From Squalus acanthias (taxonomy: Eukaryota), in the NCBI GenBank assembly GCA_030390025.1, contig CM059431.1, positions 153,762,001-153,826,000 on the forward strand: 64,000 nt of DNA, read 5' to 3'. A model generated the notes under the pieces. That model ran no database searches. It was given only the letters and a program-made list of their open reading frames with translations, and had not been told where the DNA came from. Numbering within the stretch: the first letter of the stretch is position 1; each line of letters opens with the position of its first letter. Shown here piece after piece: positions 261-41,332 of the stretch. Made by a program: the position numbers and the translations under genes.

Positions 261-459
261 GAAATCAGATCCCGAGTTGAATGTCACCGCAGAAGCGATG
301 CTTCCCAACTCATGTAAGGTACCGTGCTGGAAAAGGGAGCTCGGGGAGAAAGAACAATGTGGAACATATTGCTTCAACTGCAGAACACCAAACCCAAGCT
401 GAAAATGACATTGTCAGAGATACAGAACAGATGTGCAGATGGAAAAAGTGAGCTAGGAG
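261..459 (+). pseudogene. CARD-like exon B copy 1 (C-terminal half of module) with in-frame TAA
   Basis: ttgttag|GAA...GGAG|gttag, 199 nt; EIRSRVECHRRSDASQLM*GTVLEKGARGERTMWNILLQLQNTKPKL; TAA at 315-317. Confidence 0.8.
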
Positions 460-1525
460 GTTAGTAGTATCCAAATCTAATTCTCCGTTAGAAAAACAAA
501 GTTTTATTTAAGATGTGCACTATTTTTTACTCGTTTATGTGATGTGGGCGTCGCTACCAAGGCCAGCATTTATTAACAATCCCTAGTTGTCCTTGAGAAG
601 GTGGAGGCTTGCCGCTTTGCTGAAACGCTGCAGTCCATGTGTTGAAGGTTCTCCCACAATGCTGTTGGGGAGGCAGTGCCATGAGTTTGACAAATGTCAA
701 TGAAGGAACGGCTGTATACTTCCAAGAGAGGATGGTGTGTGTCTTGAAAGGGAACTTGGAAGTGTTGGTGTTCCCAGGCGCCTGATACTCTTGCCCTTCT
801 CCTTGGTAGAGGCCGCGGGTTTCGGAGGTACTGGCGAAGAAGCCTTGACGAGTTCCCGCAGTGCATTTTGTAGATGGTCCACTCTGCAGCCACTGGGTGG
901 CAGTGGGGAAGGGTCTGGATGCTACTAATTTATAAAGGCTTGTGTGAGTTTTATACTCGATTCCTTGAACGAACTTATAAATTTCGGCTTGGACAGAGCT
1001 CCACTACTCCTATGCAAATTCACCTTTTGTTCCTCGGATCCGTAATGCCCTCATTAACTGAACTACTTTGATTCCTTAAACCACATTGATCATTTGTGAA
1101 AGGCTCCTACTCATCCTCAAATCTCTCGCCTACCTTTTCTCTGAAGTCGTCTTCACATCCCCTCATTTGCACTCCAGTCCCTCCTCTCCCTTGCTGTGCT
1201 CTCCATTGTACCAGTTCATCAGCTCCGAACTCCAGACATACAACTCATCCCCACCGAATGGAACTCAGCTCATATGAGCTTCCATCTCTGTACTTCTTGC
1301 TTATTTAAACAACGACCACACGTAGCCAGGCCTGGGTTGTTTCTCTTAACTCCAGCAGAACATTCAGCGTTAATACTGAATACAACCACCTCTGCAAGGA
1401 AACACTAACAGTGTTCACTGCTTGAAAGACTCTCGAAAGAACTTCTGTCGCGATAGCCGTTAGTTCAGAGTATTCACTTGTTCCATAACATTTCTGTTAA
1501 TCTGTTCTCATTTACACCTTCACTG

Positions 1526-1695
1526 AAAATGCAGATACTGAAATATTACAAACATTGGCGAGCTACACGGATTTCCAGCTGCGCAGAGTTATCGATTGCC
1601 ACCGTCAGAGACTAGAACAGTCAATGGAAGAGGTAGTGGAGGCCGTTAGTCAGTCGCTTGTAGATGCAAACATGCTTACTGAAACAAAACTTAAG
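1526..1695 (+). CDS. CARD-like exon A copy 1 (N-terminal half); canonical acceptor mutated
   Basis: 170 nt, open: NADTEILQTLASYTDFQLRRVIDCHRQRLEQSMEEVVEAVSQSLVDANMLTETKLK|gtatgt; acceptor reads cactg instead of cacag. Confidence 0.7.
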
Positions 1696-1779
1696 GTATG
1701 TTTCATTTATGTTAGAATCGTATAGTTATAAATGAGTCAAACGATTGACTGTTTATACTCATAGAATCAGAGAGTCATC

Positions 1780-2543
1780 GCCCAGATATTGGAGTTCAAT
1801 GATTGCCGCGGGGGTAACGATCCGCCGCGATATCGCACTCCGCGCCTACCTTTATGGTTTTGGCCCACACGAACTTCAGTTCCTGGGCCTCTCCCTGGTG
1901 CCGGCACGCAGTGTGTGCGTGTCCCAGAGGCACAGTTAATTCGATATGACCTCTGGGATCACGTGGACCAGTTAGAGCCAATGGCAGCACACCATCTTTC
2001 ATTCATCGTTTTGACAGCAAGAGCTGTCAAAACTATGAACACAACAAGACCGCAAAAGAACAGCTAAACCTCAATTAATTTTTTTAAAAAGCCATCACAT
2101 TAATAAAATAACTATAGTAAAATAAATTAACCACTTTAAACAAAAATTTTAATGTTTGAAAAAGTTTTAAATTCTTTTTAAAAGTTATAAAAATAAACTT
2201 ACCTTCTTTACAGTCTCTAAAAAAGATAAACGTGTTGAAAAAAATTTAAAATTATACTTAATTAACTACTTACCTTGTTAAAAGGGGGTCTTACGCCTGC
2301 TTTCTTTATGTGTAAAATCTTCAACACTTACCTGCACTTTCAAACCTGAAAAAAAAACTAAGTGCGCTGCATGCGCACAACCTGTAGCGCGCACCCGGTT
2401 CACTTAGGAACCGCCCCCTTCGCAATACCCGAAGTGCCGGTTTCCCGCGCATGCGCAGTGCATGCAGGAAACCGGCACTTCGGGACCAAATACGCGAGAG
2501 TACACAGCTCGATCTCTTCCGCATTAGGTCTAATTTTCGGGCC
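1780..2543. mobile_element. TIR MITE (PIF/Harbinger-like, non-autonomous) inserted in the CR1 3' tail
   Basis: Termini GCCCAGATATT...AATTTTCGGGCC; AT-rich core; homologous to 21931-22693 and 45598-46357. Confidence 0.7.
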
Positions 2544-5500
2544 ATTGAGTTGACAACACAGAAAGAGGCCCTTCGGCCCATCGTGTCCGGCGCCGACCAT
2601 CAAGTCCTGTCTATTCTGATCCCATTTTCCAGCACTTGGTCCGTATCCTTGTATGCTATGGCGTTTCAAGTGCTCATCTAAATGCTTCTTGAATTTTGTG
2701 AAGGTTCCTGCCTCTACCACCCTTTCGTGAAGTGAGTTCCAGATTCCAACAACCCTCTGGGTGAAAAAGTTTTTCCTCAAATCCCCTCTAAACCTCGTGC
2801 CCCTTTCCTTGAAACTGTGCCCCCTTGTTATTGAACCCTCGACTAAGGGAAAACGTTCATTTCTATCTACCGTATCTGTGTCCCTCATAATTTTGTACAC
2901 CTCAATCAGGTCCCCCATCAGACATCTCTGCTCTAAGGAAAACAACCACAGCCTGTCCAGTCTCTCTTCTTAGCTGTAGCGCTGCTACGCAGGTAATATC
3001 CTGGTGAATCTCCTCTGCACCCTCTCCAATGCAATCACATCCTTCCTATAGTGTGGCGACCAGAACTGCACACAGCATTCCAGCTGTGGCCTAACTAGCG
3101 CTTTGTAAAGCTCCATCATAACCTCCCTGCTCTTATATTTTATGCCTCGGCTAATGAAGGCAAGTATCCCATATTTCTTCTTAACCAGCTTATCTACCTG
3201 TCCTGCTGCATTCAGGGATATATATGCATGCACACGAAGTTCCCTCAGATCTTTTGTCATTCCTAAGGTCCTACCATTCATTGTCTATTCCATTCCCTTG
3301 TTAGTCCTCCTAAAATGCATCCCCTCACACTTTTCAGGGTTAAATTCCAATTGCCACTGTTCTGCCCATCTGAACAACCCGTCTGTAACGTCCTGTAGCC
3401 TAAGGCTTCCCTCCTCCCTATTTACCACGCCACCAATTTTCGTGTCATCTGCGAACTTACTGATCATACCTCCTACATTCATATCTAAATCATTAATGTA
3501 CACTACAAACAGCAAAGTACCCAGCACCGATCACTGCGGTACACCACTGGGCACAGGCTTCCAGTCGCAAAAACAACCTTCGACCACCACCCTCTGCCTC
3601 CTGCCACGAAGCCAATTTTGGATCCAATGTGCCAAGTTGCCCTGGATCCCATGGGCTCTTACCTTCTTGATCAGGCTCCCATGCGGGACTGTTTCAAAGC
3701 CTTGCTGATGTGCATGTAGCCACATCAACTGCACTACCCTCATCCACACACATACTCACTCCCTCGAAAAATTAAATCAAATTGATCAGACATCATCTCC
3801 CCCTGAAAAAGCCATGCTGACTATCCTTGATTTATCCTTGCCTCTTCAAGTGGAGAGTAATACTGTCCTCAGAAGTTTTTCGAATAATTTCCCTACAAAT
3901 GATGTTAGGCTCACTGTCCTATAATTACCTGGTTAATCCCTACTACCCTTCTTGAATAATGGTACTATGTTAGCTGTTCTCGAGTCCTCTGGCACCTCAC
4001 CTGTGGCCATGAGGTTCTGAAAATTTATGTCATAGCCCCTGCAATCTCCTCCCTTCCCTCACACAGCAGCCTGTGATACATCTCGTCTGGGCCTGGGGAT
4101 TTATCCACTTTTAAGCCCGCTAAAACCGATAGTACCTCCTCCCTCTTAATACTAATTTGATAAGTATATCACAATCCCCCTGTCTGATTAATATGACTAC
4201 ATCTTCCTTCTCCATAGTGAACACAGATGCAAAATATTCATTTAAAACCCCACCTACATCTTCTGGCTCGACACACGGATTGCCACTTTGGTCCCTAATG
4301 GGCCCTACTCTTTCCCTGGTTATCCTCTTGACCTTAATATACATATATAACACCTTAGGATTGTCCTTTTTTCATTGTTAATTCATGCCCCCTCTTCACT
4401 CTCCTAATTTATTTTTTTCATTAACCCCCTGCACTTTCTATACTCCTCTAGGGCTTCCACTGTTATTAGTCCTTTGTTTCTTCCAAAATACTCCCTTTTT
4501 TCCGACTCCATTCTCGTATATCCCTTGACATCCACAGTTCCCACATTGGCTTGTTGGTCCCACCCTTGACATTTACGGGAACATGTTGCCGTTGTACTCT
4601 CTCGATTTCCTTTCTGAAAGAATCCCACTGCTCTGATGTGGATTAACCTACAAGTAGCTGATCCCAGTCCACTTTGGCCAGATCCTGCTTTATCATATTA
4701 AAATCGTCCTTCCCCCAATTTAGAACAGTTATTTCCACTTATCTTTTCCTTTTCCATGACGACCTTACATCTCACTGAATTATGGACACTGTCCCCAAAA
4801 TGCTCTCCTACTAACACTTCCACCACTTACACGGCTACATTCCCTAAACTTAGGTCCAGTACCGCCCCCTCTCTTGTAGGACTTTCTACATGCTTGCACA
4901 AAAAGCTCTCATGGAAGCCCTTTAAGAATTTCGCACCCTCTAAGCCTTTCGCACTCTCACTATCCCAGTTTATATTGGGGAATTTGAAATCTCCTACTAT
5001 TTTTACCTATTATTTCTACACTTCTCTGAGATTTGCCCAAATATCTATTCCTCTATCTCTCCTGACTGTTTGGGGGACTATGGTACACTCCCAGCAAAGT
5101 GCTTGCCCCTTTTTGTTTTTAAGTTCTACGATACGGCCTCATTAGAGGAACCTGCTAAGATATCATTCCTCCTTAAAGCAGTAATTGACTCCTTGATTAA
5201 TATTGCGACACCCCCTCCTCTTTTACACCCCCCTCTGTCTCGCCTGAAGATTCTATGGCCCGGAATATTGAGCTGCCAGTCCTGCCCCTCCCTCAACCAT
5301 GTCTCTGTGATAGCAACAATATCATACTCCCATGTGTTCATCAACCTGACTCGCAAGACTACTTGCATTTAAATAAATGCCATCTAGCCTTGCCATAATC
5401 AATTTTGCCTTTACATATTTGCTCTGCCTATCAGGCTTACTTGCTTTTTCCTCTATAGTTGGCTGTGCAACACCCCCTACTATCCTTCCACTCCGTATCC

Positions 5501-6452
5501 CATCCTTATGCCAAGTTAGTTTAAACCCCCCGCAACAGTATTGGAAATCTCCCCGCAATGATGTTGTTCCCGTTTCGGTTCAGGTGCAACCCGTCCGACT
5601 TGTACAGGTCACACCTTCCCCAGAAGCAGACCCAGTGATCCAGGAAACTAAAGCGCTCCGTCGTGCACCAACCCTTTAGCCACGCATTCATCTGCTCTAT
5701 CCTCCCATTCCTATACTCACCAGCACGTGGCACCGGGAGTAATCCAGAGATTACTTCCTTTGATGTCCTGCTTTTTAAATCTGCTACCTAGCTCCCTAAA
5801 TTCTTTTTGCAGAACCTCATCCCTCTTTCTACCCATGTCGTTGGTACCAATGTGAACCAGGACCTCTGACAGTTCGCCTTCCCCCATCAGAATGCCCTGC
5901 AGCCGTTCAGTGACATTCTTGACCCTGGTAACAGGGAGGCAACATATCATCCTGGAGTCACGTCTGTGGCCAGAGTAACGTCTATCTGTTCCCCTTATGA
6001 TAGAATCCCCTATCACGATTGCTCTCCCACTCTTTTTCCTCCCCTCCTGTGCAGCTGAGCCACTCGTAGTGCCACGGACTTGGCTCTTGCTGCATTCTCC
6101 TGAAAAACCATCTCCCCCATCAGTATCCAAAACGGAACATCTGTCGGACAGGGAGATGAACCCAGGGGACTTCTGCACTACCTTCCTAGTTATTTTACTC
6201 TGACTGATGGTCACCCATTCCCTACCTGCCTGTGCACACTTTACCTGTTGTGTGACCACCTTGTTAAACGTGCTATCCTCGAAGCTCTCAGCTTCGCGGA
6301 TTCTGCACAGTGACTCCAGCCGCAGCTCCAGCTCCGAAATGCGGATTTCGAGAAGCTGCAGCTGGAGACACTTCATGCACATGTGCCCGCCCTGGACACC
6401 TAAAGTGTTCCTGACTTCCAACATAGCACAGGAGGAGAACTCCACGCCTTTT
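2544..6452 (-). mobile_element. Near-full-length degenerate CR1 LINE (ORF1 esterase-type plus ORF2 APE/RT)
   Basis: Fragments ISKFADDTKIGG, LVRPQLECCVQFWSPHY, IVAITETWL and ORF1 AIVIGDSIIRG/HIGTND; many stops and frameshifts. Confidence 0.93.
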
Positions 6453-9400
6453 ATTCAGAGATTATTCTGTGCAATCCAACGATATAAGCAGTACATTACG
6501 CTGTACTGTTTTAACTTCAGTTGAAAATCTGAAATTAATGTCCTGTCTCAGTGATTTGAAATACTCTTCAGTGATATCTCTGTTAAATTAATTTTTCATG
6601 AATTGTCAATGCATGCATTCCTAATAAGAGAACAGTACCTCACGGACGAACCGTGATTTTTAATAGCTGCCTTCTGTGCCCAAGTATCGTCAGCTGCTTC
6701 ATCAATGACCTTCCTTCAAAAGGTCAGAGTTGGGGCTATTCGCTAATAATTGCACAATGTTTAGTTCCGTTCGCAATTCCTCAGAAAATTAAGCAGTCCA
6801 TGCCCACACGCAGCATGACCCGGACAACATCCAGGTTTGGGGCGATAAGTGAGAGGTAATATTTATGACACGTAAGTTTCAGGTGCTGGCTACATGCAAC
6901 TAGAGAAAGTCTAACCCATTACCATTGACATTCAATGGCTTTACCTTAGGCGTTCTACCATCATGAGTGTCCCGGTGATCATCAGTAAAATCAGCTCTGA
7001 GAATGTTATGCCAAACCTCTTGCAGTTAACGTTATTCCAGTAGCCAAGCCACTCGAAATAAGTAATTGAATAAGACAAAACATGCAGTGCAAGCAACACA
7101 CATCATCATTACAGTCCAATGGACAACCAGGTGCTAAGTCAAAACTGTTATAATCACATTATTCAAATCTAATGTGAATAACTGACACATACCAACTTAA
7201 CAGTATGACATTTCCTACGATCACGGCTGAGATACTCTACACATTATCCATCAAAACGGCCGAGCCTTTCGAATTGGATTGAGCCATTGCCGGTTGCACG
7301 GACTGAACAATTTCTACAATAACATATCCAATTTGTTTCTTCCATTCTACTTCTTGGTAAGTCCCACATCTACCTCGGCCCAAAACTTAGGGACGTCATC
7401 ACTCCGAGCATCTCCCGAGGCCACATCCTCTCACTTCAGTAATGCCATAATTTCGCATTTCATAAAAAACCCTAGTCTAATCGATGATGTTTATCTGCTC
7501 CCTTTCTCCAATAACTCCTCACTTATGTAACACAAATGTAAAGAGACATAATACTGTGAATAAAGCTGGGAGGTTCAAGGTACAGTTTGTCTGAGGGTAT
7601 GATATAATGATTTGATCGATGTGGCTTATATAAGTGCAGGATTGGGAGATGAATTGTGCCCTGTTACCTGAAGATCATGGTAACTTAATTTGTATGCAAA
7701 TAGGGAGCATTCATTAATAACAGTTTCAGTTGCAGAATTGGAACTTCAGGAATGATATAAGGAATTATTCAAAATAGAAATCTCAAAGTTTGGGGTAACA
7801 CCATCATAACATAACTCTTTTTTATAAAGCGTTCGTTGTCTTACACAAACTAATGGAAAAGTGATGGAAGATAAGTTATATAGACAAATTGGAGATAATG
7901 CAACAATGACAGTAACAGTGATTGGTGACTGTAAATATTCAAAGTACAGAAGTAATCTAATTGATTTAGGGAGGCCTTGGTGTCTAAAGGTTGTCCAGGA
8001 CATTATTCAGCTGGCTACAATTTTGGACGACAAGAAAGGATTGAGCATTTCATAAATTTCTAGAAATGGGCAGGGACTAGTCGGTGAGGTAAAGGCAGTG
8101 AAACATCTACCAATGTTATCGTTTATATGTTCATATGTTAGTATTCATATGAATTATAAAATGTTTCGTTACAATCAAAACAATAATTATGTTAAAGGAA
8201 TAAATCTAATGTCAACGAGGTTGACATATTAGCTCAGATACATTGAGGCGGATATTATCAAATAATATCGTGGGTAGGAAATAAGAAGATAGACAATGTA
8301 GGATTCCCATACAAGATACACAAATCACACGGGGAATGAAAGCAGTGCAGGACAGTCAAGAATTACTTGAGCTTGCAGAGATAATGAAATAAACAATAGA
8401 TTTAAAATTGAATGTAGGAGTGTTGGGCTGGTTATATAAAACAAATGAAGGAAACCTTGGTAATATAGTGAACATTTAATCGATGAATCAGTGTCCGGTG
8501 ACAGAGTTCGAGACAATGATCATATTCCAAAGACACTTCAAGGAAAAAAGTTAAACAAAGAAAAGTGCTGTGTAGAGATGAAATGGGAATGGTTCATATA
8601 GAGGACGTAGGATTCACTGAAAAGCTATTGGTACTGTTTCGATGAATTAACGTGATACTTGGAATGAATGAAAAACTCATTGAAGTCAATGGAAATGAAA
8701 GTCAGATGAGAGTAAAACTGGGCTGCAAATTCGCTTCAGCGCATTTGACCCAATTGGCCAACACCGGCCAACACTTGGGACGCATTTTTATGGGTGTCAA
8801 CTTGTGCAATCTGAGTTTCTAAAAAATTAACTGTGAGCTTTCAGAAATATTAAGTTGCTCCACTACCAATAATTACTGGTTTTGATCATATCCTATATCT
8901 GTAACGGTAGCTTTGTGCTTTGATTTTCGACTTTACCCTTTTCCATCAATCGGTTCCTGGTTATAATGAGAGAAAGATCAGTTTCCCTGGGTGTCTCAAA
9001 GCTGCTCCTTTCTATCTCAGTTACCTCTTCCAATCCTACAACCTGTCAAGATTCAGACGCTGGTCTAATTCTTACCTCTTGTGCATTCCCCTTTTTCCAT
9101 CGCTCCACCATTGACGGACTTGCCTTAAGCGGTTTAGACCCTAAGATCTTCAATTCCCTCCCCAAACCACTATGAATCTCTAATCTCTCTTCTCTTAGAC
9201 TCTCTTTAAATCTACTCTCTGACCAAGCTTTGGTCACCTGTCCTAATATCTTCCTCTGATGCTTGATGTTACATTTTGTTTGATAACACTCCCTTTGCAA
9301 CGCTTTGGGACGTTTTACTACGCTAGTTGTTGTTGCTTCTAATTAATTATCATTGCGGGCGCTCCTCCTGCCTGACAAATGGCATATCTTCCTTTTATTC

Positions 9401-9589
9401 GCTTATGGGATCTGGGCTTCGCTGGCAAGGACAGCATTTATTGACCGTCCCTTAATTGTTTTCTGCATTAACTCCCGATTCTGAGCATTTATTCTCTCTC
9501 CTAAGGAAAGCTAGAAATCGAAAAGACGTTTCCTTTCCGAGTTTGTACATTACTTCTCTGTATATGATTGCAATATACATTCTTGTTAG

Positions 9590-9788
9590 GAAATCAGAAC
9601 ACTAGCTGAATGTCACCGCAGAAGCGATGCATCCCAACTTATTTTCGACACCGTGCTGGAAAAGGGAGCTCGGGGAAAAAGAACAATGTGGAACATATTA
9701 CTTCAACTGCAGAACACCAAACCCAAGCTGAAAATGACATTGTCAGAGATGCAGAATAGAAATACAGAAGGAGAAAGTGATCTAGAAG
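9590..9788 (+). CDS. CARD-like exon B copy 2
   Basis: ag|GAA...GAAG|gt; open: EIRTLAECHRRSDASQLIFDTVLEKGARGKRTMWNILLQLQNTKPKLKMTLSEMQNRNTEGESDLE. Confidence 0.8.
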
Positions 9789-10847
9789 GTTAGTGGTATC
9801 CAAATCTATATTTCCGTTAGAATAACAAAGTTTCATTTGAGGTGAGAATTTTATTTTATTCTTTTAAGGGATGTGGGCGTCACTGGCAAGGCCAGCATAT
9901 ATTGCACATCCCTAGTTGCACTTTCGAAACTGTTGGGTATCCGCTTTCTGAAACGCTGCAGTCGATGACTTGAAGTTACTCCCACAATACTGTTGGGGAA
10001 GGAGTGCCATGAGTTTGACACAGCGACAATGAAGGAAAGGCGATATTCTTTAAAGTTAGGATGGTGTGTGAGTCGGAGGGGAAAATGGATGTAGTGGTGT
10101 TCCCAGGCGCCTGCTGCTCTTGTCCTTCTAGGCGGTAGATCTCGTGGATTTGGGAAGTGCCGTCGAAGAAGCGTTAATGAGTATCCGCAGTGCATCTTGT
10201 AGATGGAACACTCTGCAGCCACGGTGTGGCAGTGGGGAAGGGACTGAATGCAACAAATTGATTCATGCTTGTATGAGTTTTATACTCGATTTCTCAAATG
10301 AACTGCCCGTTATAAATTGCAGCTTGGACAGCGACCTCTACTCCTATTCAAATTCATCCTCAATTCCACGTTTCCGTGATGCCCAAAATAACTGACCTAC
10401 TATGATTTCTTATCCCATATTGATCAATTGTGAAAGGCTGCTGCTCATCCTAAAAGCCCTCCCCCACTTTATCTCTAAAGTCGTCTTCACATCGCCTCTT
10501 TTACAATCCTGTCCGTCGTCTCCCCTTGCTGTGATCTCCAGTGTACCAGTTCATCTGCTCCGGACTCCAGACATAGAATTCATTCACACCGACTGGAACT
10601 CAGTTCCTATTAGCTTCCATCTCTGTACGTCTTACTAATGTTAAGCATCGACCACATGTTGCAAGGCCTGGTTCGTTTTCTTAACTCCAGCAAAGCAATT
10701 CTGCGTTAATTCTGAATTCCACCTCTGTAAGGCTCCACTGGCAGTGTCACCGCTAAACAACTGCTGTCGCGATAGCAGTTAGTTCAGAGTATTCACTGTT
10801 TCATAGCGGAAATTTATGTTAATCTGTTCTCATTTACACCTTCAAAG

Positions 10848-11017
10848 AAAATGCAGTTACTGAACTATCACTAACGTTGGCGAGCTACACGGATTTCCAG
10901 CTGCGCAGAGTTATCGTTTGCTACCGGCAGAGACTGGAACAGTCAATTGAAGAATTCGTGGAGGCCGTCAGTCAGTCGCTTGTAGATGCAAACGTATTTA
11001 CTGAAACAGATCATAAG
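10848..11017 (+). CDS. CARD-like exon A copy 2
   Basis: caaag|AAAATGCA...AAG|gtatgt; open: NAVTELSLTLASYTDFQLRRVIVCYRQRLEQSIEEFVEAVSQSLVDANVFTETDHK. Confidence 0.8.
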
Positions 11018-14183: not shown

Positions 14184-14382
14184 GAAATCAAATCCCGAGC
14201 TGAATGTCACCGCAGAAGCGATGCATCCCAACTCATTTTCGATACCGTGCTGGAAAAGGGAGCTCGGGAAGAAAGAACAATGTGGAACATCTTGCTTCAA
14301 CTGCAGAACACCAAACCCAAGCTGAAAATGACATTGTCAGAGATACAGAACAGATGTACAGAGGGAGAAAGTGATCTAGGAG
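14184..14382 (+). CDS. CARD-like exon B copy 3
   Basis: Open, canonical ag/gt; overlaps ORF 14247-14534 (LEKGAREERTMWNILLQLQNTKPKL). Confidence 0.8.
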
Positions 14383-15448: not shown

Positions 15449-15618
15449 AAAATGCAGTTACTGAAATATCACTAACGTTGGCGAGCTACACGGATTTCCA
15501 GCTGCGCACAATTATCGTTTGCTACCGACACAGACTAGAACAGTCAATTGAAGATTTCGTGGAGGCCGTTAGTCAGTCGCTTGTAGATACAAACGTATTT
15601 ACTGAAACAGATCATAAG
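15449..15618 (+). CDS. CARD-like exon A copy 3
   Basis: Open, canonical ag/gt, 170 nt. Confidence 0.8.
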
Positions 15619-18772: not shown

Positions 18773-18971
18773 TAAATCAGATCCCGAGTTGAATGTCACC
18801 GCAGAAGCGATGCTTCCCAACTCATGTTCGGTACCGTGCTGAAAAAGGGAGCTCGGGGAGAAAGAACAATGTGGAACATATTGCTTCAACTGCAGAACAC
18901 CAAACCCAAGCTGAAAATTACATTGTCAGAGATACAGAACAGATGTACAGCTGGAAAAAGTGAGCTAGGAG
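18773..18971 (+). pseudogene. CARD-like exon B copy 4; first codon GAA>TAA
   Basis: ttgttag|TAAATCAGA; remainder is open and homologous to copy 1. Confidence 0.75.
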
Positions 18972-21676: not shown

Positions 21677-21846
21677 AAAATGCAGATAATGAAATATTAC
21701 CAACGTTGGCGAACTACACGGATTTCCAGCTGCGCAGAGTTATCGGTTGCTACCGTCAGAGACTAGAACAGTCAATTGAAGAGGTAGTGGAGGCCGTTAG
21801 TCAGTCGCTTGTAGATGCAAACATGCTTACTGAAACAAATGGTAAG
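21677..21846 (+). CDS. CARD-like exon A copy 4
   Basis: cacag|AAAATGCA...AAG|gtatgt; open. Confidence 0.8.
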
Positions 21847-21930
21847 GTATGTTTAATCTATGTTGGAATCGTAAAGTTTTAAATGAGTCAAACGATTGAC
21901 TGTTTATAGTCATAGAATCAGAGAGTCTGA

Positions 21931-29600: not shown

Positions 29601-29794
29601 TATTCGCTTATGGAATGTTGGCGTCGCTGGCAAGGACAGCATTTATTGACCATCCCTTAATTGTTTTCTGCATTAACTCCCAATTCTGAGCGTTTAATCT
29701 CTCTCCTAAGGAAAGCTAGAAATAGAAAAGACGCTTCCTTTCCGAGTTTGTACATTACTTCTCTATGTATGATTGCAATATACATTCTTGTTAG

Positions 29795-29993
29795 GAAATC
29801 AGAAACCTAGCTGAATGTCACCGCAGAAGCGATGCATCACAACTTATTTTCGATTCCGTGCTGGAAAAGGGAGCTCGGGGAGAAAGAACAATGTGGAACA
29901 TATTGCTTCAACTGCAGAACACCAAACCCAAGCTGAAAATGACATTGTCAGAGATGCAGAATAGAAGTACAGAGGGAGAAAGTGATCTAGAAG
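29795..29993 (+). CDS. CARD-like exon B copy 5
   Basis: Open, canonical ag/gt; shares SEMQNR with copy 2. Confidence 0.8.
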
Positions 29994-31060
29994 GTTAGTG
30001 CTATCCAAATCTAATTTTCCGTTAGAATAACAAAGTTTCATTTAAGGTGAGAATTTTATTTTATTCTTTTAAGGGATGTGGGCGTCACTGGCAAGGCCAG
30101 CATACATTGTCCATCCCTCGTTGCACTTTCGAAACTGTTGGGTAGCCACTTTCTGAAAAGCAGCAGTCGATGTGGTGAAGGTACTCCCACAATACTGTTG
30201 GGGAAGGAGTGCCATGAGTTTGACACAGCGACAATGAAGGAAACGCGATATACTTTAAAGTTAGGAATGGTGTGTGAGTTGGAGGGGAAAATGGAAGTAG
30301 TGGTGTTCCCAGGCGCCTGCTGCTCTTGTCCTTCTCGGCGGTAGATCTCGTGGATTTGGGAGGTGCCGTCGAAGAAGAGTTGAATGAGTTGCCGCAGTGC
30401 ATCTTGCAGATGTAACACTCTGCAGCCACGGTGTGGCAGTGGGGAAGGGACTGAATGGTACAAATTGATTCATGCTTGTATGGGTTTTATACTCGATTTC
30501 TTAAATGAACTTTGGCACTGCGTTATCATATGCAGCTTGGACAGCGACCTCTATTCCTGTTCAAATTCAGCCTTAGTTCCACGGTTCCGTGATGCCCACA
30601 TTAACTGACCTACTTTGATATCTTGTCCCATATTTATCAATTGTGAAATGCTGCTGCTCATCCTAAAAGCCCTCCCCAACTTTATCTCTAAAGTCGTCTT
30701 CACATCGCCTCTTTTACACTTCTGTCCGTCGTCTCCCCTTGCTGTAATCTCCAGTGTACCAGTTCATCTGCTCCGGACTCCAGACATAGAACGCATTCAC
30801 ACCGACTGGAACTCTGTTCCTATGAGCTTCCATCTCTGTACGTCTTACTTATGTTAAGCATCGACCACATGTTGCAAGGCCTGGTTCGTTTTCTTAACTC
30901 CAGCAAAGCCAGTCTGCGTTAATTCTGACTTCAACCTGTGTAAGGCTCCACGGGCAGTGTCACTGCTAAACAACTGCTGTCGCGATAGCAGTTAGTTCAG
31001 AGTATTCACTGTTTCATAGCGGAAATTTATGTCAATCTGTTCTCATTTACACCTTCAAAT

Positions 31061-31230
31061 AAAATGCAGTTTCTGAACTATCACTAACGTTGGCGAGCTA
31101 CACGGATTTTCAGCTGCGCAGAGTTATCGTTTGCTACCGGCAGAGAATAGAACAGTCAATTGAAGAATTCGTGGAGGCCGTTAGTCAGTCGCTTGCAGAT
31201 ACAAACGTAATTACTAAAACAGATCATAAG
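31061..31230 (+). CDS. CARD-like exon A copy 5; canonical acceptor mutated
   Basis: Open (ORF 31090-31284 ASYTDFQLRRVIVCYRQRIEQSIEEFVEAVSQSL); acceptor caaat; in-frame CAG at 31067-31069. Confidence 0.7.
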
Positions 31231-34200
31231 GTATGTTTCATATATGTTCCAATCGTATGTGTGTTAAATGAGTCAAACTATTGACTGTTTAGACAGACTG
31301 TGTTTGCTGCAACCCACCTATATTAGCGGTACTTTACGCTGCACTTTATTAACTGAAGTGCCAGTGTAATCAACATTTGAAGTACCCTTCAGAGATATCT
31401 CTCAGTTAATTTATTTTTTCAGGAATTTTCATTGAATGTATTCATAATAAGAGAAGTTTCTCATGAACAAACCATGATTTTTTAAAGGTAGCCTTCTTGG
31501 CCCAATTATCGTCAACTACAATAATCTTCCTTCAAAAGCTCAGAGTTGGGGCTGTTCGCTGATGATTGTACGGTGTTTAGTTCCTTTCGCAAATCCTCAG
31601 AAAATGAAGCAGTCGATGCCCACACGCAGCATGACCTAGACAACATCCATATTTCGACCGATAAGGGGCAGCTAACATTTATGAAGGGTAGTACCAGGTA
31701 CTGGCTACCTACAGCTAGAGAAAGCCTAACCAATTGTCGTTGACATTCAATGGCTTTACCATCGGATTTCTAAAAACCATGAGTATCCCGGCATCACCAG
31801 TAAAACCAGCTCTGAGATTTCACTGCCAAAATTTTTGCAGTTAACGTAATTCCAGTTGCCAAGCCCCTCGAAATGTGTAATTGAATAAGACACAATGTGC
31901 AGCCTCAGCATCATTTATCCTCATTACAGCCCCAATGGACAACCTGGAGATAGATCAAAACTGTAATAACCACATAAATCAAATCGCATGTGAATAAGTT
32001 AACTGACACATACGAACTTAACAGTATGAATTTCCCTACGATCACGGCCGAGATTTTGCGCCCATTCTTCATCAAAACGGCCGAGAATTTCCAATTGGAT
32101 TGAGCCATTGCCGGTGGTGCGGATTTAAACAATTTCTGCTGAACATGTCCAATTCGTTTCTTCTATTCTACTTCTTGCAAAGTCCCGACCCTACATTGCT
32201 CCAATGCTCAGGGACATCAACAAACCCGTCCTCGACCGAGCCCACATCCTCTCAACTCATGAATGCCATAATATCCCATTTCTTAAAGAAATCTAGACTA
32301 ATCTATGATGTTTATCTGCTCCCTTTCTCCAATAGCTCCTCACTTATGTAACACACATGTAATGAAACATAATACTGTGAATAAAGCTTGTGAGTTCAAT
32401 GAACAGTTTGTCTGAGGGTATGACATAATGATTTGATCAATGTGGCTTATATAAGGGCAGGATTGGCAAATGAAGTGCCCTGTTATCAGCAGATCATGGT
32501 AACTTAAGTTTAATGCAAATAGGGAGCAGTCATTAATAACAGATTCATTTGACGTATTGGAACTTCAGGACTGATATAAGAAATGATTCAAAATATAAAT
32601 CTATAAGTTTGGGGTAACACAATAATAATGGAACATTTTGTTTATAAGGCGTTCGTTATCTTACACCATACAGTGGAAAAGGAATAGAGGAAGAGTTATA
32701 TAGACAACTTGGAGGAAATGCAGCAATAACAATAACGGTGATTGGTGACTTTAAGTATCCCAAAAACAGAAGTAACATAAGTGGGGAAGGGAGGCCAGGC
32801 GTCTGAAGCTTTACCTGGACATTATTCATTTTATGACAATAAGAAAGGATTGAGCATTTGATCCATTTCTAAAAATTGACAGCGGCTACTCAGTGAGCTA
32901 AGTCTAGTGAAACATTCACCAATTATATCGTTAGTATTCATATGAATTAGAAGATGTTTCGTTAAAATCAAAACAATAAATTTGTTACAGGAAAATATCT
33001 AATTTCAACGAGGCTAACATATTAGCTCAGTTATATTGAGGCAGATATGATCAGATAAAATGGTGGTGAGGCAATATAAAGATAGCCAGTAGAAGTTTTA
33101 CGTACAAGATACACAGAGCACAAGTGAATGAAAGGAATGCAGCCCAAACTAGAATTACTTGGGCGTGCATAGAAAATGAAATAAAGAGCAGATTTTACAA
33201 TTGAATGTAGGATTGTAGGGCTAGTTATATAAAACAAATGAAGAACGCCTTGGTAATATAATGAATATATAATGGATGAATGAGTGGCCGGTGACAGAGT
33301 TCAGATAATGATCACATTCCGTTTAAACTGCAAAGAAAATATTTACACAAATAACAGAGCTGCTTAGAGATGAAAAAGGAATGGTTCATATAGATGACGA
33401 TGGATTAACTGAAAACTATTAGTACCGTTTCGATGAATGAAGGTTAAACTTGGAATGAGTGAAAAACTCATTGAAGTAAATTGTAAAGAAAGTTATACGC
33501 GAGTAAAACGGGCCGCCGATTCGCTTCAGAGCGTTTGACCCAGGTGGCCAACACTGGCCAACACCTTGTGACCCATTATTTATGGTTGCCAACTTGTGCA
33601 ATCTGAGTTTTACAAACCAAGCTGTGAGCTTTCAAAACGATTATTGCCCTTAACAAAGAATAATTATTGGTTTTGATCGTATCCTATACCTGTAATCTTA
33701 AATTTGTGATTTTATTTAGCAATTTACCCTTTTCCATCAATCAGTTGCTGGTTATAATGAAAGAAAGTCCAGTCGCCCTGGGTGTCTCAAAACTGTTCCT
33801 TTCTATCTTTATAACCTCTTCGGATCCTACAACCTGTCGAGATCCAGGCGCTGGTCCAGTTCTGGCATCTTGTGCATCCCCCATTTTCATCGTTGCACCA
33901 TTGGTGGCCTTGCCTTCAGCGGATTAGTCCCTAAGCTCTGGAATTCTCTCCCGAAACTACTATGAATCTCTAGCTCTCTCTTCTCTAAGACTCACTTTAA
34001 ATCTACTCTGTGACCAATCTTTGGTCACCTGTCCTAATATCATCCTCTGATGCTTTATGTTACATTTTGTTTGATGACACTCCCTTTGCAAGGGTTGGGA
34101 CGTTTTACTACGCTAGTTTTTGTTGTATCTAATTAATTCTCATTGCAGGCACGCCTCCTGTCTGACTAATGGCGTATTTTCCTTTTATTCGCTTATGGGA

Positions 34201-34379
34201 TCTGGGCGTCGTTGGCAAGGACAGCAATTCTTGATCATTCCTTAATTGTTTTCTGCATCAACTCCCGATTCTGAGCTTTTCAACACTCTCCTAAGGAAAG
34301 CTAGAAATAGAAAAGACGTTTCTTATCAGAGTTTGTACATTAATTCTTTATATATGATTGCAATATACATTCTTGTTAG

Positions 34380-34578
34380 AAAATCAGATCCCTAGCTGAA
34401 TGTCACCTCAGAAGCGATGCATCCCAACTAATTTTCGATCACGTGCTGGAAAAGGGAGCCCCTGGAGAAAGGCAAATGTGGACCATATTGCTTCAACTGC
34501 AGAACACCAAACCCAAGCTGAAAATGACATTGTCAGAGATACAGAATAGATGTACAGAGGGAGAAAGTGATCTCGAAG
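34380..34578 (+). CDS. CARD-like exon B copy 6, last before NACHT
   Basis: Open: KIRSLAECHLRSDASQLIFDHVLEKGAPGERQMWTILLQLQ...; phase-1 donor matches the NACHT exon acceptor. Confidence 0.82.
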
Positions 34579-34634
34579 GTTGGTGGTATCCAATCTAAGT
34601 TTTATTCGTTTCTGATATGTGAGCGTCGCTGCAA

Positions 34635-36190
34635 TTGGGGGAGGAGATAGCAGAAGAGCTTGCCATAAGTTTCCAATCTTCGCTAGATTCGGGGGAGGTG
34701 CCTGAGGATTGGAAAGTGGCAAATGTGACACCATTGTTCAAGAAAGGGTGTAAGGACAATCCTGGTATCTACAGGCCGGTCAGTTTAAGATCAGTGGTGG
34801 GTTCAGTTTTAGAAACAATAAACAAGGAAAAAATTAACGGTCACTTGGGGAGATTTAAGCTAATTAAGGTGAACCAGCACATGATTTATAAAAGGCAGAT
34901 CATGTATGACTAATCTAATTGATTTTTTTGTTGAAGTAACAGGGAGGATTGATGAAGGGAATGCAAAAAATGTAGTCTACATTAATTTGTGGAAGGCTTT
35001 TGAAAAGGTATCACATAATGGACTGGTTAACAAAATTGTTCCTCATAGATTAGGTTGGTCAGTGGCAGCTTGGACAAGGATTTGGCTTAAGGACAGAAAA
35101 CTGCGATTTGTAGTAAATGGCTGTTTTTCAGACTGTAGGATGGTAGACAGTGGTATTTCCCAAGGTTTCAGTGCTGGGGCCACTGCATGTTTTGATATAT
35201 ATATATTTATATATATATATATATATATATATAAATGACGTGCATATTGGAATACAGAGTAGAATTTCTAAATTTGCCGAATACACCAAACTTGGCGTGA
35301 GGCAAACAATTAGGATGATGCCAATCGACTGCAACATGAGATAGTTAGGCTAGCAGAATGGGCAGAGAAGTGGCAGATGGAATTTAATACAGAGAATTGT
35401 GAGGTGATGCATTTTGTTAGAAGGAAGAGGGAGAGGCAATATCCAATTAATAACACTGTTTTAAAGAGTGTGCAGGACAGGGAGCTGGGAGGTAATGCAC
35501 ATAGGTCCCTGAAGTTGGCAGGAGATATTGAGAGATTGGTTCGCAAAGCATATGGGATCTTGGGGCTTCATAAATAGAGGTACTGAGTACAAAAGTAGAG
35601 AAGTTATACTGAACCTTTATAAAGCGCTGGTTAGGCCACAACTGGAGTATTGCGTCCAGACGCCGTCACCACACTTTAGGAAGGACATGAAGGTCCTTGA
35701 AGGGGTACAGAGGACATTTGCCACAATGGTTCCGGGTACGGAGAATCTTAGGTACAAGGACAGGTTGGAGAAGTTGGATTTGTTTTCATGAGAGCAAAGG
35801 AGGTTGAGGGGTGATTTAATAGATGTGTGTAAGATCATGACGGGTTTGGATAGGCTAGACGAGGAAAGGAATCTCTCACTAGTTGAAGGTACAAGTACAA
35901 GGGGACACAAATATAATGTTTTAGGCAAGATATACAGGGGGTGGGGGTGTGAGTAAAAACATTTTTACGCAGCGAATGGTGAGGACCTGAAACTCGCTGT
36001 CGATGAAGTGGTGGAAGCGGACACGCACAATGTTTTCAAGGGGAGACTGGATAGGTACTTCAGGCAAATAAACTTGCAGTGTTACGGGGATAGAGCGGGG
36101 GAATGGACTGCTCGATTGCTCTACAGAGAGCCGGCACTGACTCGATGGGCCGAATGGCCTCCTTCTGTGCCGTTATGACTCTGACTCTGT
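34635..36190 (+). mobile_element. Degenerate 5'-truncated CR1 LINE (RT region) with internal (TA)n
   Basis: VPEDWKVANVTPLFKKG, YRPVSL, LVRPQLEYCV fragments; (TA)n at ~35196-35233. Confidence 0.9.
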
Positions 36191-36536
36191 GACATAAAAT
36201 ACCAGTAATTTACCAAGATTTACTTTTGCAATTGATTTTGAAGTTTTAAAATCTTCATTACAAGAAGTTCAAAATCCAACAGCAAACACCCCACAAACCT
36301 GAAACTTGCTTCATGAACTATTTTTCTGTTACTTCAGAAATTCTATCAGTTTTTTTATATCAATGAGTGTCTAGGCATTAAACTGTAGAAAGTAAATACG
36401 GGATTACTCATTGCTGAGAAACTTTTCGCATTTTTTAAATTTCCTTGACGATAGGTTTCTCCTTCATAACACTGATCTGTTAAATATTTTTCTCCTTATT
36501 ACAATGACTACACCAATGACGTTGTTCGTATTCAAG

Positions 36537-38256
36537 AGATAGAATTAAAGCACAAAGACACTCTCCGCAAACAGAATGAGAAAATAACAGTCAAAACCAC
36601 TGTAGGAAAAGAAAGATCTCGAAGATGTTTTCTGGATGAAAAGTATGCTGATGTAACGATTGTTGCTTCCCTGCATGAGCGGAGACTGGCAGAAAATGAA
36701 CTGAAAGCCCGAGGTAGAGAGCGTGAAGAATTACAGAGGAAAAACATCGAGAATGAGCTGGAAGAGATTCAGCTGGATCAGTTGCTGAGTTTCGCTAAAA
36801 CAGGCAATTCTGGGACAACCGTGGTAATTGGGTCCTCGGGGATTGGGAAAAGCACCATGATACAGAAGATAATCCGGGATTGGGCCGCAGGGAAAATATA
36901 CAAACAGTTTAAAGTTGTCTTTCCTTTTAAGGTTCGACAATTGAATTTAATAAATGGAAAAACATGTCTAAATAGCCTGATCCTGGATTCCTACCCTGAT
37001 TTCGAAAATGAGTTGAAACTTGTGTGGAAAGAACCCGGAAACATATTATTTATATTTGATGATTTAGACCAATTTGAACCAACCATTGATTTCACCGATA
37101 TTCCGAGAAACAACGACCCCCAATATCAGTGTTTCGATCCCGAGGGCTGCAATGAAGTGTCAGACATCGTGCGCTGCCTCATACAGGGACATTTACTGAA
37201 AGGCTGTTCAGTGCTGATCACAAGCCGGCCGTGGAAACTGGAGTCTCTGGGAAAGGCAAATATAATTCCAACGGTCGAAGTTCTGGGTTTCAAATCTGAG
37301 AAAATAAAACAATACTTCGACCGTTATTTTGGAGATGGCCATTTTTCCACAGATGTAATCAAGTACATTGAGCAGAATGAGACATTGTACACCATGTGCT
37401 ATAACCCTCTGTACTGCTCGGTCCTCGCTTCATTATTAGAGTCACACCGGACAGAAGGAGCGCAGGAGAGAGCATTGTCCGTCACAACCAGCACAAAGGT
37501 ATTCTCCGCTTACGTCACAAGACTTCTAGAGAGATGCGGCTGTGACGCGGAAACTTCTTGCGACATGTGGCTGAAATTGGGCGAGTTAGCGTACCAGGGA
37601 GTTTGCAACAAAACCGTTTTGATTATGACAGACCAGTTCAATCGCCACGTAATCGAACATTCCAATCTTATCTGTGCGCTTATGATGGAGATTCCAGACA
37701 AAGACATGTGTACTGTTGTCTACACATTCACTCACTCCGTTATGCAGGACTTTGTCGCTGCTCTTGCGAAAAGTCTAAGTACAGCAGGAAATGGACTGAC
37801 ACGATTGCTCGATAACGGATACACGTGCGCTGACGACAGATTTAGGACATTTTCACGGTTTCTCGTTGGTCTCTCCTCACGGCATTCAACTGATCAGCTT
37901 GAGCGGAAATTAGGTACATTTCCTTCTGAAGCAATCCCTTGTGTGTCGGATTGGCTGAAAAAAAATGTCGAAAAACGCGTTACAAACTTAGAAGATGGGC
38001 AAACCCAAAGGACCTTCTTAAAGATATTGGATTATTTCCGTGAATTCGGAGATACAAACCTTAAGATGGCCGCGTTAACACCGATTAAAAAGGCCATTTT
38101 CACACAATGTCGTCTCAAACCTTTTGACTGTGCGATTATTTCAACCACGTTAGTGGCCGTTGAACTCGTAGAAGAGCTGAATCTGGACACTTGCCGGGTT
38201 GAAGATGAAGGGATCCGTCAGCTGGAGCCCATGCTGCACAAATGTAAAATACTCAG
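36537..38256 (+). CDS. NLR core exon: FISNA-like helical region, NACHT NTPase, winged helix/HD2 and first LRR
   Basis: ttcaag|AG ATA GAA in frame with ORF 36782; Walker A GSSGIGKS, Walker B LFIFDDLDQF, sensor VLITSRP, FTHSVMQDFVAAL, ELNLDTCRV; donor CTCAG|gtatt. Confidence 0.92.
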
Positions 38257-38800
38257 GTATTGCGCAGAAATAGTTACATCAACTCTTTCACTGGCATGTG
38301 TGATATTATTATTTCAGTGAAAAGCAAAAACACATTATACATTCGATCAGTTAATGAGCACATTCACGCATTCGCCTCTATATTGTGCTCAATGGAACGG
38401 TAAGAGACGGCGCCGTTGTGTCTGTTCCGGAAATACCTGTAAGTGCTGGAATGCTCATTTAAATAGATCGGTTTGGGTGTTGACAACATCAAATTCGATT
38501 TTAACGCACTCTTCGTACCACATGAGAATCTGGATTAATCAGTGCGATATACTCCCCTCACCTTGACCATCATATATTACATCTCTGTTGGGAATTAAAC
38601 ACAATTTCAAAGAACTTTATAGAACAAAAGGAGGCCATTCGGGCCATCGTGGACATGCCGGGTCTTCCAATCAGTTTTGTAATTAGTCACACTTCCCTGC
38701 TCTGTCCCCATAGCCCTGCAATTAGATACCCTACAAGTATTTAACCAATTCCCTTTCGAAAGTAACTATTGAATCTGCTTCCACTAGCCAGTCAGGCAGT

Positions 38801-39490
38801 ACATAAGAACATAAGAACATAAGAACATAAGAACATAAGAAATAGGAGCAGGAGTAGGCCAATCGGCCCCTCGAGCCTGCTCCGCCATTCAATAAGATCA
38901 TGGCTGATCTGATCCTAACCGCCAATCTACTATCTATCACAGAACCATCTCCTGCATCTAACAGAATTGCACACACGAAATAGGAGCAGAATCAGGCTAC
39001 ACAGTCCCTGGGCCCGCTCCACTACCCACAGGGCCATGACCGATCCGAACCTAGACTCATGTCCAAATTCCTGCCCGCTCCCCGTAACCCTTAATGCCCT
39101 TTACTTCTAGGAAACTGTCTATTTCTGTTTTAAATTTAATTAATGTTGTAGCTTCTACAGCTTTTTGTGGCAGCATATTCCATGGACCTACCACCCTCTG
39201 AGTGAAGTAGTTCCTCCTCATCTCAGTTTTGAAAGAGCAGCCCCTTATTCTAAGACTATGTCCCCGAGTTCTCGTCTCACCCGTCATCGGGAACATCCTA
39301 CCCGCATCCACCCGATCCAACCCCTTCACAATCTTATATGTTTCAATAAGATCGCCTCTCATTCTTCTGAACTCCAATGAGTAGAGTCCCAATCTACCCA
39401 ACCTCTCCTCATATGACCACCCCCTCATCCCCGGGATTAACCGAGTGAACCTTTTTTGCACTGCCTCGAGAGCAAGGATGTCTTTCCTTA
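38801..39490 (-). mobile_element. Young short CR1 copy, near-identical to the 3' part of 19153-20818, nested in an older CR1 3' fragment
   Basis: (CATAAGAA)n tail; same C-terminal peptide ...GYGERAGIWT; about 4 mismatches noticed; possible TSD TACATA. Confidence 0.93.
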
Positions 39491-40471
39491 CATACTAAAC
39501 CATAACAACTCGCTGCATCAAGCAAATTCTCCTCATCTCACCTCTATTTTTTTGTCGTTTAACTTAAAATTGTGTCCTCCATTAACTGATCATCTTGCCA
39601 TAGGCACCTTGTCATTAAGAAAAAAATTGGCTTTGTGTTAAACAATTACAATAAATGTTAAAGAAAACTGTTTTATTTGGCAGTTTGATTAAATTACAAG
39701 TGAGTTATTACCGTCCTGTCAGAAAGTTCCCAATTCCTCGATCATACCGATTTGCCGACTCAATAGCTTGTTGTTGAGCTCAATTATGCCAAGTGAGACA
39801 GTAAGATGTGGGTTCGCTTCTGCGAATCCTAAAACTCTGAGTACACTTCCCAGCGGCACAGTTACGTTAAGGCATCATGAGAGGTAGAGAGGAAAGGAAT
39901 ATGCAACAGAATATCACTCCACCTGTTATTAGGCATAATAGATTGATGTGTTATAATTCCCCTCAGTAGATTGTCCAATAAACTTCTCAGTTAATTCTTC
40001 TTGTTTTGGCATGAAGTGCATTTTTAACCTCAGTGCATTAAAAAGATACTTCTCCTACAATAGAGACAATGTCGGGGGTACGGTCCCTATATTTACCTCA
40101 AATTTATTCTTTTAATAAAGAGAAGCACCCCTGAGAGATATTTGTACTGGATTCCTCTTCGTTACAGACCACCCATTTACAGCATTTAACCTGTCAACTA
40201 CTCAGTAACTACTTTACATGTAACAGTTTTATAACGTGTGGTTAAATTTTGACCTCAGACATTAAAGTAACTTCCGGGTTACTGCTTTTACCACATATGA
40301 TATTTGCAATTAACTTAATGAAAATCACAGAATAGCATTTAAGTTACGGGTCTTATATTAGAGTTTTTATGGTCCAACGTGTCCCACGTTAAATATATCA
40401 CTTATTTGACAACATTTCCTGTCTGCCGCATTAATCCATATTCATTAATCATGTTGTTTATTTGTTTTTAG

Positions 40472-40558
40472 ACTCAATGAGAATAAACTGGGAGATTCGG
40501 GAGTGAAACGGCTTTCTGCAGTTCTACAGAAAAATGATTGTAAAATACAGAGACTGGA
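40472..40558 (+). CDS. NLR LRR exon (87 nt)
   Basis: tttttag|A CTC AAT GAG...; LNENKLGDSGVKRLSAVLQKNDCKIQRLE (RI-like LRR); donor gtgagt; phase 2-2. Confidence 0.9.
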
Positions 40559-40834
40559 GTGAGTAATTTTGAAAAAAATTCGTACAGCACCACGAGAGAT
40601 ATAATTATGTATATAAATACGATTTACATTGTTAATGATAACCTGTCGATCTCACTGTTCAATTTACTTTAAAACGGAAGTAATTTAGAAAGGGTTCAGT
40701 ATGCATATATCATGAACAGGATTACCCCCAGCCCACCTTCATTTTGGAATTCCAAAGTAATTCTTTGCATTTGGCAAAAATTTAACGTGTGTGTGTGTTT
40801 TGTATAATCTGTGTTTATGTTTCGATCTCTGAAG

Positions 40835-41026
40835 GTTAAAATCTAATGCTCTCACAGATGAGTGTGTGCAAAGTCTGGTCTCTGCTCTCCGTATAAACGC
40901 TTCACTGATGGAACTGGATCTGAGTAAAGATAATCAGGATGGTGAACAGTCCAACATATTGACTGACAATTCTGTTTCGTTATTGCGCAGTCTCATACAG
41001 AGCAGCGATACTCTCAAGGAAATCAG
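40835..41026 (+). CDS. NLR LRR exon (192 nt)
   Basis: LKSNALTDECVQSLVSALRINASLMELDLSKDNQDGEQSNILTDNSVSLLRSLIQSSDTLKEIR; ag/gt, phase 2-2. Confidence 0.88.
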
Positions 41027-41271
41027 GTGATTTTTTTCCTGGTTAACTATTAATTATTTAAATGTTCTTTCACGTGTAAAATATATTTTCATATTTTTAC
41101 TTTAATAAATGGACTTGTAATGGAAAATACATCGTCATTATTTTGCGGCGAATGTATCTCCTCCATACGATTAAACACAAATATTTTGAATGAATCTCAC
41201 AATATCGCTACTCATAGTGAACAGAGTAAAACTTATTGATAACAATTGTCTTTATTTTAATATTTTTACAG

Positions 41272-41332
41272 ATTGATACGCAATCAGCACATTGCAGAAG
41301 AAAAGCAAATTCTGACGTCAATCAATGTATAG
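41272..41332 (+). CDS. Probable terminal NLR coding exon
   Basis: ttttacag|A TTG ATA CGC AAT...GTA TAG; AATAAA at 41468-41473. Confidence 0.7.

Follow-up and report, generated by a model that had tools for sequence, protein, structure and literature searches.

Tandem exon pairs that probably encode a poly-CARD N-terminus of a shark NLR, intact in a paralog and decaying in the copy examined

How many effector domains can one NLR carry? Vertebrate NLRs usually have one or two, as in NOD2 with its two CARDs, and the vertebrate sensors known to us have one or two CARDs. The question is raised by a 64,000-nt stretch of the Squalus acanthias genome, here called the window (contig CM059431.1, hereafter C7, positions 153,762,001 to 153,826,000 of the forward strand; positions are counted from its first base, negative numbers lying to its left), in which pairs of short exons, A and B, are repeated upstream of an exon for a NACHT domain. 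The initial annotation had proposed that this array is a hidden string of CARD-like domains, six or more in number, that can be spliced onto one NACHT-LRR receptor. We assign a probability of roughly 60% to the reading that the tandem exon pairs encode the poly-CARD N-terminus of a shark NLR, which is intact in a close paralog and decaying in the window copy. That one NLR may carry many CARDs is strongly supported by the paralog, with its 17 modules, and also supported by public models with three and five modules, but not by the window copy, where stops leave two contiguous modules; the proposal is well supported for the locus family, not for the window copy as it stands.

Within the window, five copies of the 170-nt exon A alternate with six copies of the 199-nt exon B, forming five complete A-B modules and a half module (B 261), and a GT donor is present at all 11 exons. 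Exon A starts in phase 1 and ends in phase 0, its first two bases completing a codon and its end falling on a codon boundary, and exon B runs from phase 0 to phase 1, starting on a codon boundary and leaving one extra base at its end. A joined pair thus measures 170 + 199 = 369 nt, or 123 codons, and any number of pairs therefore reads into the NACHT exon. The last B joins this exon, which starts at 36537, in frame (G|AG ATA GAA). The exon lengths, the phases and the sum of 123 codons were exactly as claimed in the initial annotation, and the same was true of the junction with the NACHT exon, of the number of modules and of the end coordinate 41332, which is that of a TAG stop.

The array continues leftward, as had been proposed. 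In the 60 kb fetched to the left of the window, 7 further A and 7 further B exons were found, the leftmost being a B at position -42227, so that the whole array comprises 12 A and 13 B exons; the extension gave no start exon. The acceptor is AG in 10 of the 12 A exons, and all 12 A and 10 of the 13 B exons are open. Both A and B are internal exons with ordinary polypyrimidine/AG acceptors and strong GT donors, and the A exons, as read from the sequence, have no in-frame ATG at their start. Comparison of the window with itself by BLAST returned direct repeats on the kilobase scale with 80-95% identity, together with a higher-order duplication (648-14407 vs 20814-34603, ~92%). The program TRF reported no tandem repeat in the window, because the period exceeds its 500-nt limit. 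The period of about 4.6 kb that had been claimed for every monomer was observed where no transposon has inserted, but not elsewhere, and the A-to-B introns are of 3.2 kb or 7.9 kb.

Strong evidence for the preferred reading comes from a paralogous locus. Two other loci of this contig contain close paralogs of the NACHT exon, with 99% and 94% amino-acid identity, both of them open. The 99% paralog lies 914 kb downstream (C7:154.57-154.72 Mb), and 150 kb around it were examined. This region is collinear with the window array from position -43706 to past the right end of the window, with 98.9-99.2% identity; the two copies are ~99% identical over >85 kb, and four large insertions differ between them. 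The paralog contains 17 A and 17 B exons, and 17 out of 17 modules are exactly 369 nt long, stop-free and in register. Acceptors are AG in 33 of the 34 exons, the lone TG being common to the paralog and to window A 1526, and GT donors are present in 34 of 34. In the paralog, the reading frame stays open from the first module to the NACHT exon; in the window copy it is broken twice, B 261 and B 18773 each containing a TAA codon. Modules 1 and 2 of the paralog (C7:154573320-154590687) are much more diverged than the others, with 78-86% identity to the reference exons, and are separated from module 3 by a gap of 22.7 kb; they may belong to the same transcript as the rest.

The defects of the window copy become apparent when its exons, all on the + strand, are followed towards the NACHT exon. 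Copy 1 of exon B (261..459), which would encode the second half of a CARD and whose partner exon A falls outside the window on the left, is interrupted at codon 19 by an in-frame TAA, where the paralog has TTA. Copy 1 of exon A (1526..1695), corresponding to the first half of a CARD, is open and has TG in place of AG as acceptor, as in the paralog. Copy 2 of exon B (9590..9788) is open, with AG/GT borders, and identical to the paralog copy, and it is followed by three further exons that are open with AG/GT borders, namely A copy 2 (10848..11017; it aligns to residues 4-59 of the homolog P0135), B copy 3 (14184..14382) and A copy 3 (15449..15618). Copy 4 of exon B (18773..18971) is disabled, its first codon being TAA instead of the GAA of the paralog. 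Copy 4 of exon A (21677..21846) is open with AG/GT borders and is the first exon of the only stretch that reads unbroken into the NACHT exon; this stretch comprises two modules and is completed by B copy 5 (29795..29993; open, AG/GT), A copy 5 (31061..31230; open, with AT as acceptor where the paralog has AG) and B copy 6 (34380..34578; open), which ends in the G that the first codon of the NACHT exon requires. At both altered acceptors, an AG located 9 nt downstream keeps the frame. Outside the window, the leftmost B (-42227) is frameshifted by two 1-nt deletions. A longer protein from the window copy would need skipping of the defective pairs, which the phases permit. All disabling differences between the two loci (2 nonsense codons, two 1-nt deletions and one AG to AT change) are on the window side, which fits a relaxed constraint on the window copy and suggests that it is a ~1%-diverged duplicate in decay.

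The proposal that the module adopts a CARD or death fold found support in its homologs, both in profile searches and in structure comparison. The peptides of window exons A and B correspond to the two adjoining halves of a module that is repeated at the N-terminus of shark NLR models, with best E values, against P0007, of 1.65e-13 for A and 5.28e-16 for B. In a 24-row alignment they align gap-free and end to end with residues 4-59 and 60-120, respectively, of P0135, a protein with a single module. When the AlphaFold model of P0135 (mean predicted local distance difference test, pLDDT, 81.6) was compared with known structures by VIA-align, rows 1-37 were CARD entries, with Z scores from 12.0 down to 6.2. 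They included NLRC4 (Z 12.0), zebrafish NLRP1, CARD8, ARC, NOD1 (Z 11.4), Apaf-1, caspase-1, RIG-I and RIP2; row 6 was titled merely 'unknown protein' and row 35 was a complex of a death domain (DD) with a CARD (DD:CARD). Row 38 was a design on the Apaf-1 CARD (Z 4.2), and unrelated folds scored at most 3.2. The best Foldseek matches of the same model were also nearly all CARDs, with TM scores up to 0.8 and weak E values (>= 0.4). The Pfam CARD profile (PF00619, cut-off 23.9 bits) recognised the module in P0007 (40.4 bits) and P0124 (30.3 bits), scored below the cut-off in P0122 (22.9 bits) and P0123 (23.4 bits), and gave no match in P0121, P0006, P0010 and P0027. Matches of single exon peptides to CoV_NSP15_M, Herpes_IE68 and Annexin were below threshold and were dismissed as chance. 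According to the structure models, the predicted module begins with a short helix, which is followed by a six-helix CARD and then by a flexible linker of ~30 residues, and the intron would fall within the third CARD helix. In the model of a 3.5-module protein the bundles were folded separately, the linkers being of low confidence (predicted template modelling score, pTM, 0.35).

The pattern of substitution in the paralog is that expected of coding exons, at least as regards the reading frame. Parsimony placed 289 substitutions on the tree of its 17 modules, with 0 indels in the 34 exons. Of 2000 neutral simulations, each distributing equal numbers of random substitutions over this tree, 0 left every one of the 17 modules stop-free, and the minimum number of modules hit was 3. 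For the CARD core the ratio of nonsynonymous to synonymous counts was 2.28, and the linkers gave 3.9-4.5, in comparison with the value of ~3.2 implied by the neutral simulation; 34 of 122 codons were invariant. Among six clean monomers, exons share ~93% identity, vs 81-92% per 100-nt intron window (~86% for the introns), the exons being the better conserved. Furthermore, exons of the window and the paralog differ at 35 of 6273 positions (0.56%) and non-exon sequence at 690 of 79593 (0.87%; Fisher P = 0.008); the differences in the CARD exons comprise 9 synonymous, 17 nonsynonymous and 2 nonsense changes. We read these sequence comparisons as pointing to paralog exons that are translated and kept in frame and foldable, with fast-changing surfaces.

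Under the poly-CARD reading, each A+B pair would provide a complete CARD plus a flexible linker, and the array would constitute the N-terminal effector region of the receptor. In the intact paralog the exons would be translated, and a single chain would most likely contain several or even all of them, as 'beads on a string'. Oligomerisation through the NACHT domain would then generate a very high local density of CARDs, which could in turn seed a filament of a downstream CARD partner. The window copy as it stands would place at most two CARDs on the NACHT exon, unless the defective pairs are skipped.

A number of observations weigh against this reading and explain the moderate probability that we give it. 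The identification of A+B as a CARD is supported through a homolog, P0135 being the folded protein and not the joined module of the window, and the window half-peptides A and B alone gave no Pfam CARD match, single exon peptides being too short. We infer which exons are joined from the splice signals of internal exons and from public gene models in which modules stand in series. Amino-acid constraint is weak, the synonymous fraction on the paralog tree being 0.27 vs 0.24 under neutrality, which corresponds to a ratio of nonsynonymous to synonymous rates (dN/dS) of ~0.85; in the array of the window the ratio is 0.92 (exon A) and 0.58 (exon B). When the N-termini of homologs, which are not conserved among them, were used as tblastn queries, neither array yielded a start exon, and the search at the paralog covered 3.3 kb upstream of the first module. 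Queries for a start exon, for a membrane-tail exon of the P0122/P0007 type and for the N-terminus of P0006 gave only chance-level matches (E >= 0.13) in both arrays. As for annotated proteins, a query with the three P0006 modules found no module-bearing protein of more than 2076 residues and, at 652-2076 residues, only P0006 itself, both being weak negatives owing to candidate crowding; public models reach 5 modules at most, and the one with 5 may fuse two genes. On the side of the window, the TAA codons and the deletions that suggest decay are read from the assembly, and on its left the homology between window and paralog stops exactly at a run of 332 N (-44038 to -43707). This run is probably an assembly gap at the left edge of the array, and it may account for an apparent 5' truncation of the window array by the equivalent of five upstream paralog modules. 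No RNA run was listed for the NACHT exon, and three runs of the same species, inspected over positions 31000-41100, covered repeat segments only, with no depth on A 31061 or on the NACHT exon, and give no evidence either way.

Open exons in the paralog imply translation, not joint inclusion, and the same data could be produced if each mRNA took one or a few A-B pairs by alternative or mutually exclusive splicing, the isoforms differing in their CARD. The phases would let any A join any later B, and the modules diverge fast in protein, the linkers faster than the core, as might be expected of interchangeable cassettes. On the contrary, the ordinary acceptors and strong donors of all A and B exons would lead to their inclusion by default, and no intron segment rises above the exons in the conservation profile of the monomer as a candidate selector. 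Moreover, serial joining of 2 to 5 modules is seen in public gene models of sharks and rays, and the A exons lack an in-frame ATG at their start. We consider this choice among cassettes unlikely in comparison with the serial joining that the poly-CARD reading supposes.

The near identity of the two copies, ~99% over >85 kb, and the position of the N run at the left breakpoint raise a different doubt, namely that a single locus was assembled twice, its two haplotypes standing side by side as window array and paralog, truncation and defects being assembly problems. This we regard as improbable. The four large insertions by which the copies differ include a 12.65-kb LTR (long terminal repeat) element whose LTRs are 1.2% apart, and the third copy, with 94% identity in NACHT, shows that the locus duplicates. 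It has to be noted that the arrays are real under either view of the assembly, because their modules differ from each other by 7-20%.

The proposal in its literal form, in which the window array is spliced in full onto its NACHT-LRR part to give one protein with six or more CARDs (12 in all), is very improbable. The phases and junctions fit it, as do 10 of 12 A exons with AG acceptors and the open frames of 12/12 A and 10/13 B, but translation would stop at the TAA of B 261 and at that of B 18773. In addition, the array has a frameshift in its leftmost B, adjoins an N run and gave no start exon when one was sought; the proposal could hold only if the defective pairs are skipped. That the upstream pairs are unused by-products of duplication, only the pair adjacent to NACHT being functional, is hardly credible: dN/dS among copies is near 1, the window copy has defects and 52 of the 65 module-bearing homologs collected have a single module, but 34 paralog exons have accumulated 289 substitutions with 0 stops and 0 indels, none of the neutral simulations kept all modules stop-free, exons are about twice as conserved as introns, and 108 of the 112 B-like exons tabulated on the chromosome have no stop in the match.

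These B-like exons indicate that the module is not confined to the two arrays described above. Among the 150 matches listed when the genome was searched at the protein level with exon B, 112 were on this contig with at least 56% identity, and stops were present in 4 of them. They form 28 same-strand clusters between 153.7 and 159.3 Mb of C7, at least 9 of which hold five or more B copies (13, 17, 5, 8, 9, 7, 5, 9 and 6). Besides those of the window and the paralog, long arrays are located at C7:155.26, 155.46, 158.03, 158.32, 158.57, 158.84 and 159.19 Mb. A NACHT exon was listed directly downstream in 4 of these 9 long arrays, 72 of 672 NACHT candidates having been scored; the five long arrays without a listed NACHT exon might be CARD-only genes, or their NACHT exons might be among the unscored candidates. 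Array 3 (near C7:155.46-155.52 Mb) is known from match tables only. Among 137 collected proteins, the module was present in 65, once in 52, twice in 9, three times in 2, and four and five times in 1 each; the public models with tandem modules include P0006, with three (Mustelus asterias), and P0007, with five (Scyliorhinus torazame). A hydrophobic, membrane-like segment follows CARD modules in P0122 (~259-342) and P0007 (~553-620). In P0007 it lies between modules 4 and 5, which suggests that a tail-anchored multi-CARD gene was fused to a CARD-NACHT gene by the annotator.

From the arrays and models taken together, we tentatively propose, at somewhat less than even odds, a shark NLR subfamily with up to 17 linked CARDs in one polypeptide, in which the number of CARDs varies among paralogs (1, 3, 5, 8, 13, 17 and others) by gain and loss of exon pairs. 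The string might act as a multivalent filament seed or as an array of diversified baits, and its copy number might set the signalling threshold. Signalling by CARDs proceeds by nucleated growth of filaments, and the number of CARDs brought together sets the threshold. If the proposal is true, up to 17 CARDs in one selected open frame would constitute a natural experiment in valency, and gain and loss of whole exon pairs would be a new route of diversification for an immune gene family. Since the window copy is damaged, the intact sister locus is the better object of study.

Downstream of the array, judging by protein matches, the window is the 3' part of a shark-type NLR gene with a NACHT domain and a short LRR region. 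The NACHT exon (36537..38256, + strand, 1720 nt) is open and comprises a linker, the NACHT domain, winged-helix and HD2 regions and the first LRR. It matches Pfam NACHT (1.6e-32, 113 bits, cut-off 26.7), with the P-loop motif GSSGIGKST in the open reading frame (ORF), as well as NOD2_WH (30.1 bits, cut-off 23.1) and, slightly below the cut-off of 33.1, NLRC4_HD2 (30.1 bits). The identity of its NACHT to the nearest annotated proteins, all of them elasmobranch models, is 47-50%. The short LRR region is formed by three small + strand exons, detected by tblastn against the LRR part of P0006 and P0004 (E 1e-17 to 5e-08): an 87-nt exon (40472..40558; matching the P0006 LRR part, AG/GT), a 192-nt exon (40835..41026; matching P0006, P0004 and P0005, AG/GT) and the last coding exon (41272..41332; matching P0004), which ends in the TAG stop.

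Several transposons and other insertions are present in and around the gene. An LTR retroelement of 12.65 kb occupies positions 48767-61421 and has no counterpart in the paralog; its two LTRs (48764-50394 and 59783-61424) share 98.8% identity, and it contains long ORFs with Pfam matches to reverse transcriptase, RNase H and integrase, together with two long ORFs without a Pfam match. An insertion of the long interspersed element (LINE) type, also absent from the paralog, lies at 19152-20813, within the intron that separates B 18773 from A 21677, and an open LINE ORF of 479 amino acids (19136-20575) encodes a reverse transcriptase (RVT_1, 2.2e-31). A 677-bp inverted pair (20142-20818 and 38814-39490) shows 99.4% identity; its second member has inserted between the NACHT exon and the LRR exons and is not found in the paralog.

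Among known genes, the closest are elasmobranch 'NLRP3-like' or uncharacterised NLR models (P0006, P0007, and P0004/P0005 of Chiloscyllium punctatum), which belong to the same family and share the module and the short LRR region. These models are automatic and have at most 5 modules, vs 17 in the paralog, and no paper describing them was found. The whale-shark genome revealed an expanded NLRP-related family in sharks, and the available text of that report does not mention CARD arrays (PMC8455134). The available part of a 2026 preprint reports no CARD-containing NLR in the elephant shark (10.64898/2026.07.03.736391), which fits the CARD of this module being cryptic to profile searches; inflammasome inventories of cartilaginous fishes may be under-called.

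Repeated N-termini are also found in another large and fast-evolving fish NLR family, the zebrafish NLR-B30.2 (NLR-C) genes, where, according to the available text, some groups have extensively duplicated N-terminal repeats before the NACHT exon (PMC4852459). The zebrafish repeat is described there as a short family-specific peptide and not a folded domain, death-fold domains being a separate feature of groups 1 and 2a (PMC4852459), whereas the unit described here is predicted to be a complete CARD. That long CARD strings occur in vertebrate gene models is shown by P0127, a public predicted protein of Arctogadus glacialis with 8 Pfam CARD stretches in series; however, this unnamed automatic product has no NACHT match, contains Death domains as well and is distant to window exon B (E 6.3e-07).

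Covalently linked N-terminal CARDs are likewise present in RIG-I and MDA5, and the RIG-I 2CARD was among the structural matches of the module (6bzh, Z 10.6; 4p4h, Z 9.9). The RIG-I 2CARD nucleates the CARD filament of MAVS, and the title of entry 4p4h names the complex of the two. RIG-I and MDA5 are helicase sensors with two CARDs packed together, whereas many CARDs on predicted flexible linkers would be present here. Literature searches on more than two tandem CARDs in one NLR gave work of the NOD2 and RIG-I type only. NOD2 likewise has more than one N-terminal CARD before NACHT, winged-helix and LRR regions, and the window NACHT exon matches the NOD2_WH profile. Unlike in NOD2, each CARD is here split over two exons in a repeating 4.6-kb unit, and a short LRR region is encoded in three small exons. 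Altogether, tandem-CARD NLRs are known with the two CARDs of NOD2, and the locus family described here, rather than the window copy with its 12 A and 13 B exons, provides good support for extending this number to up to 17, as in the paralog.

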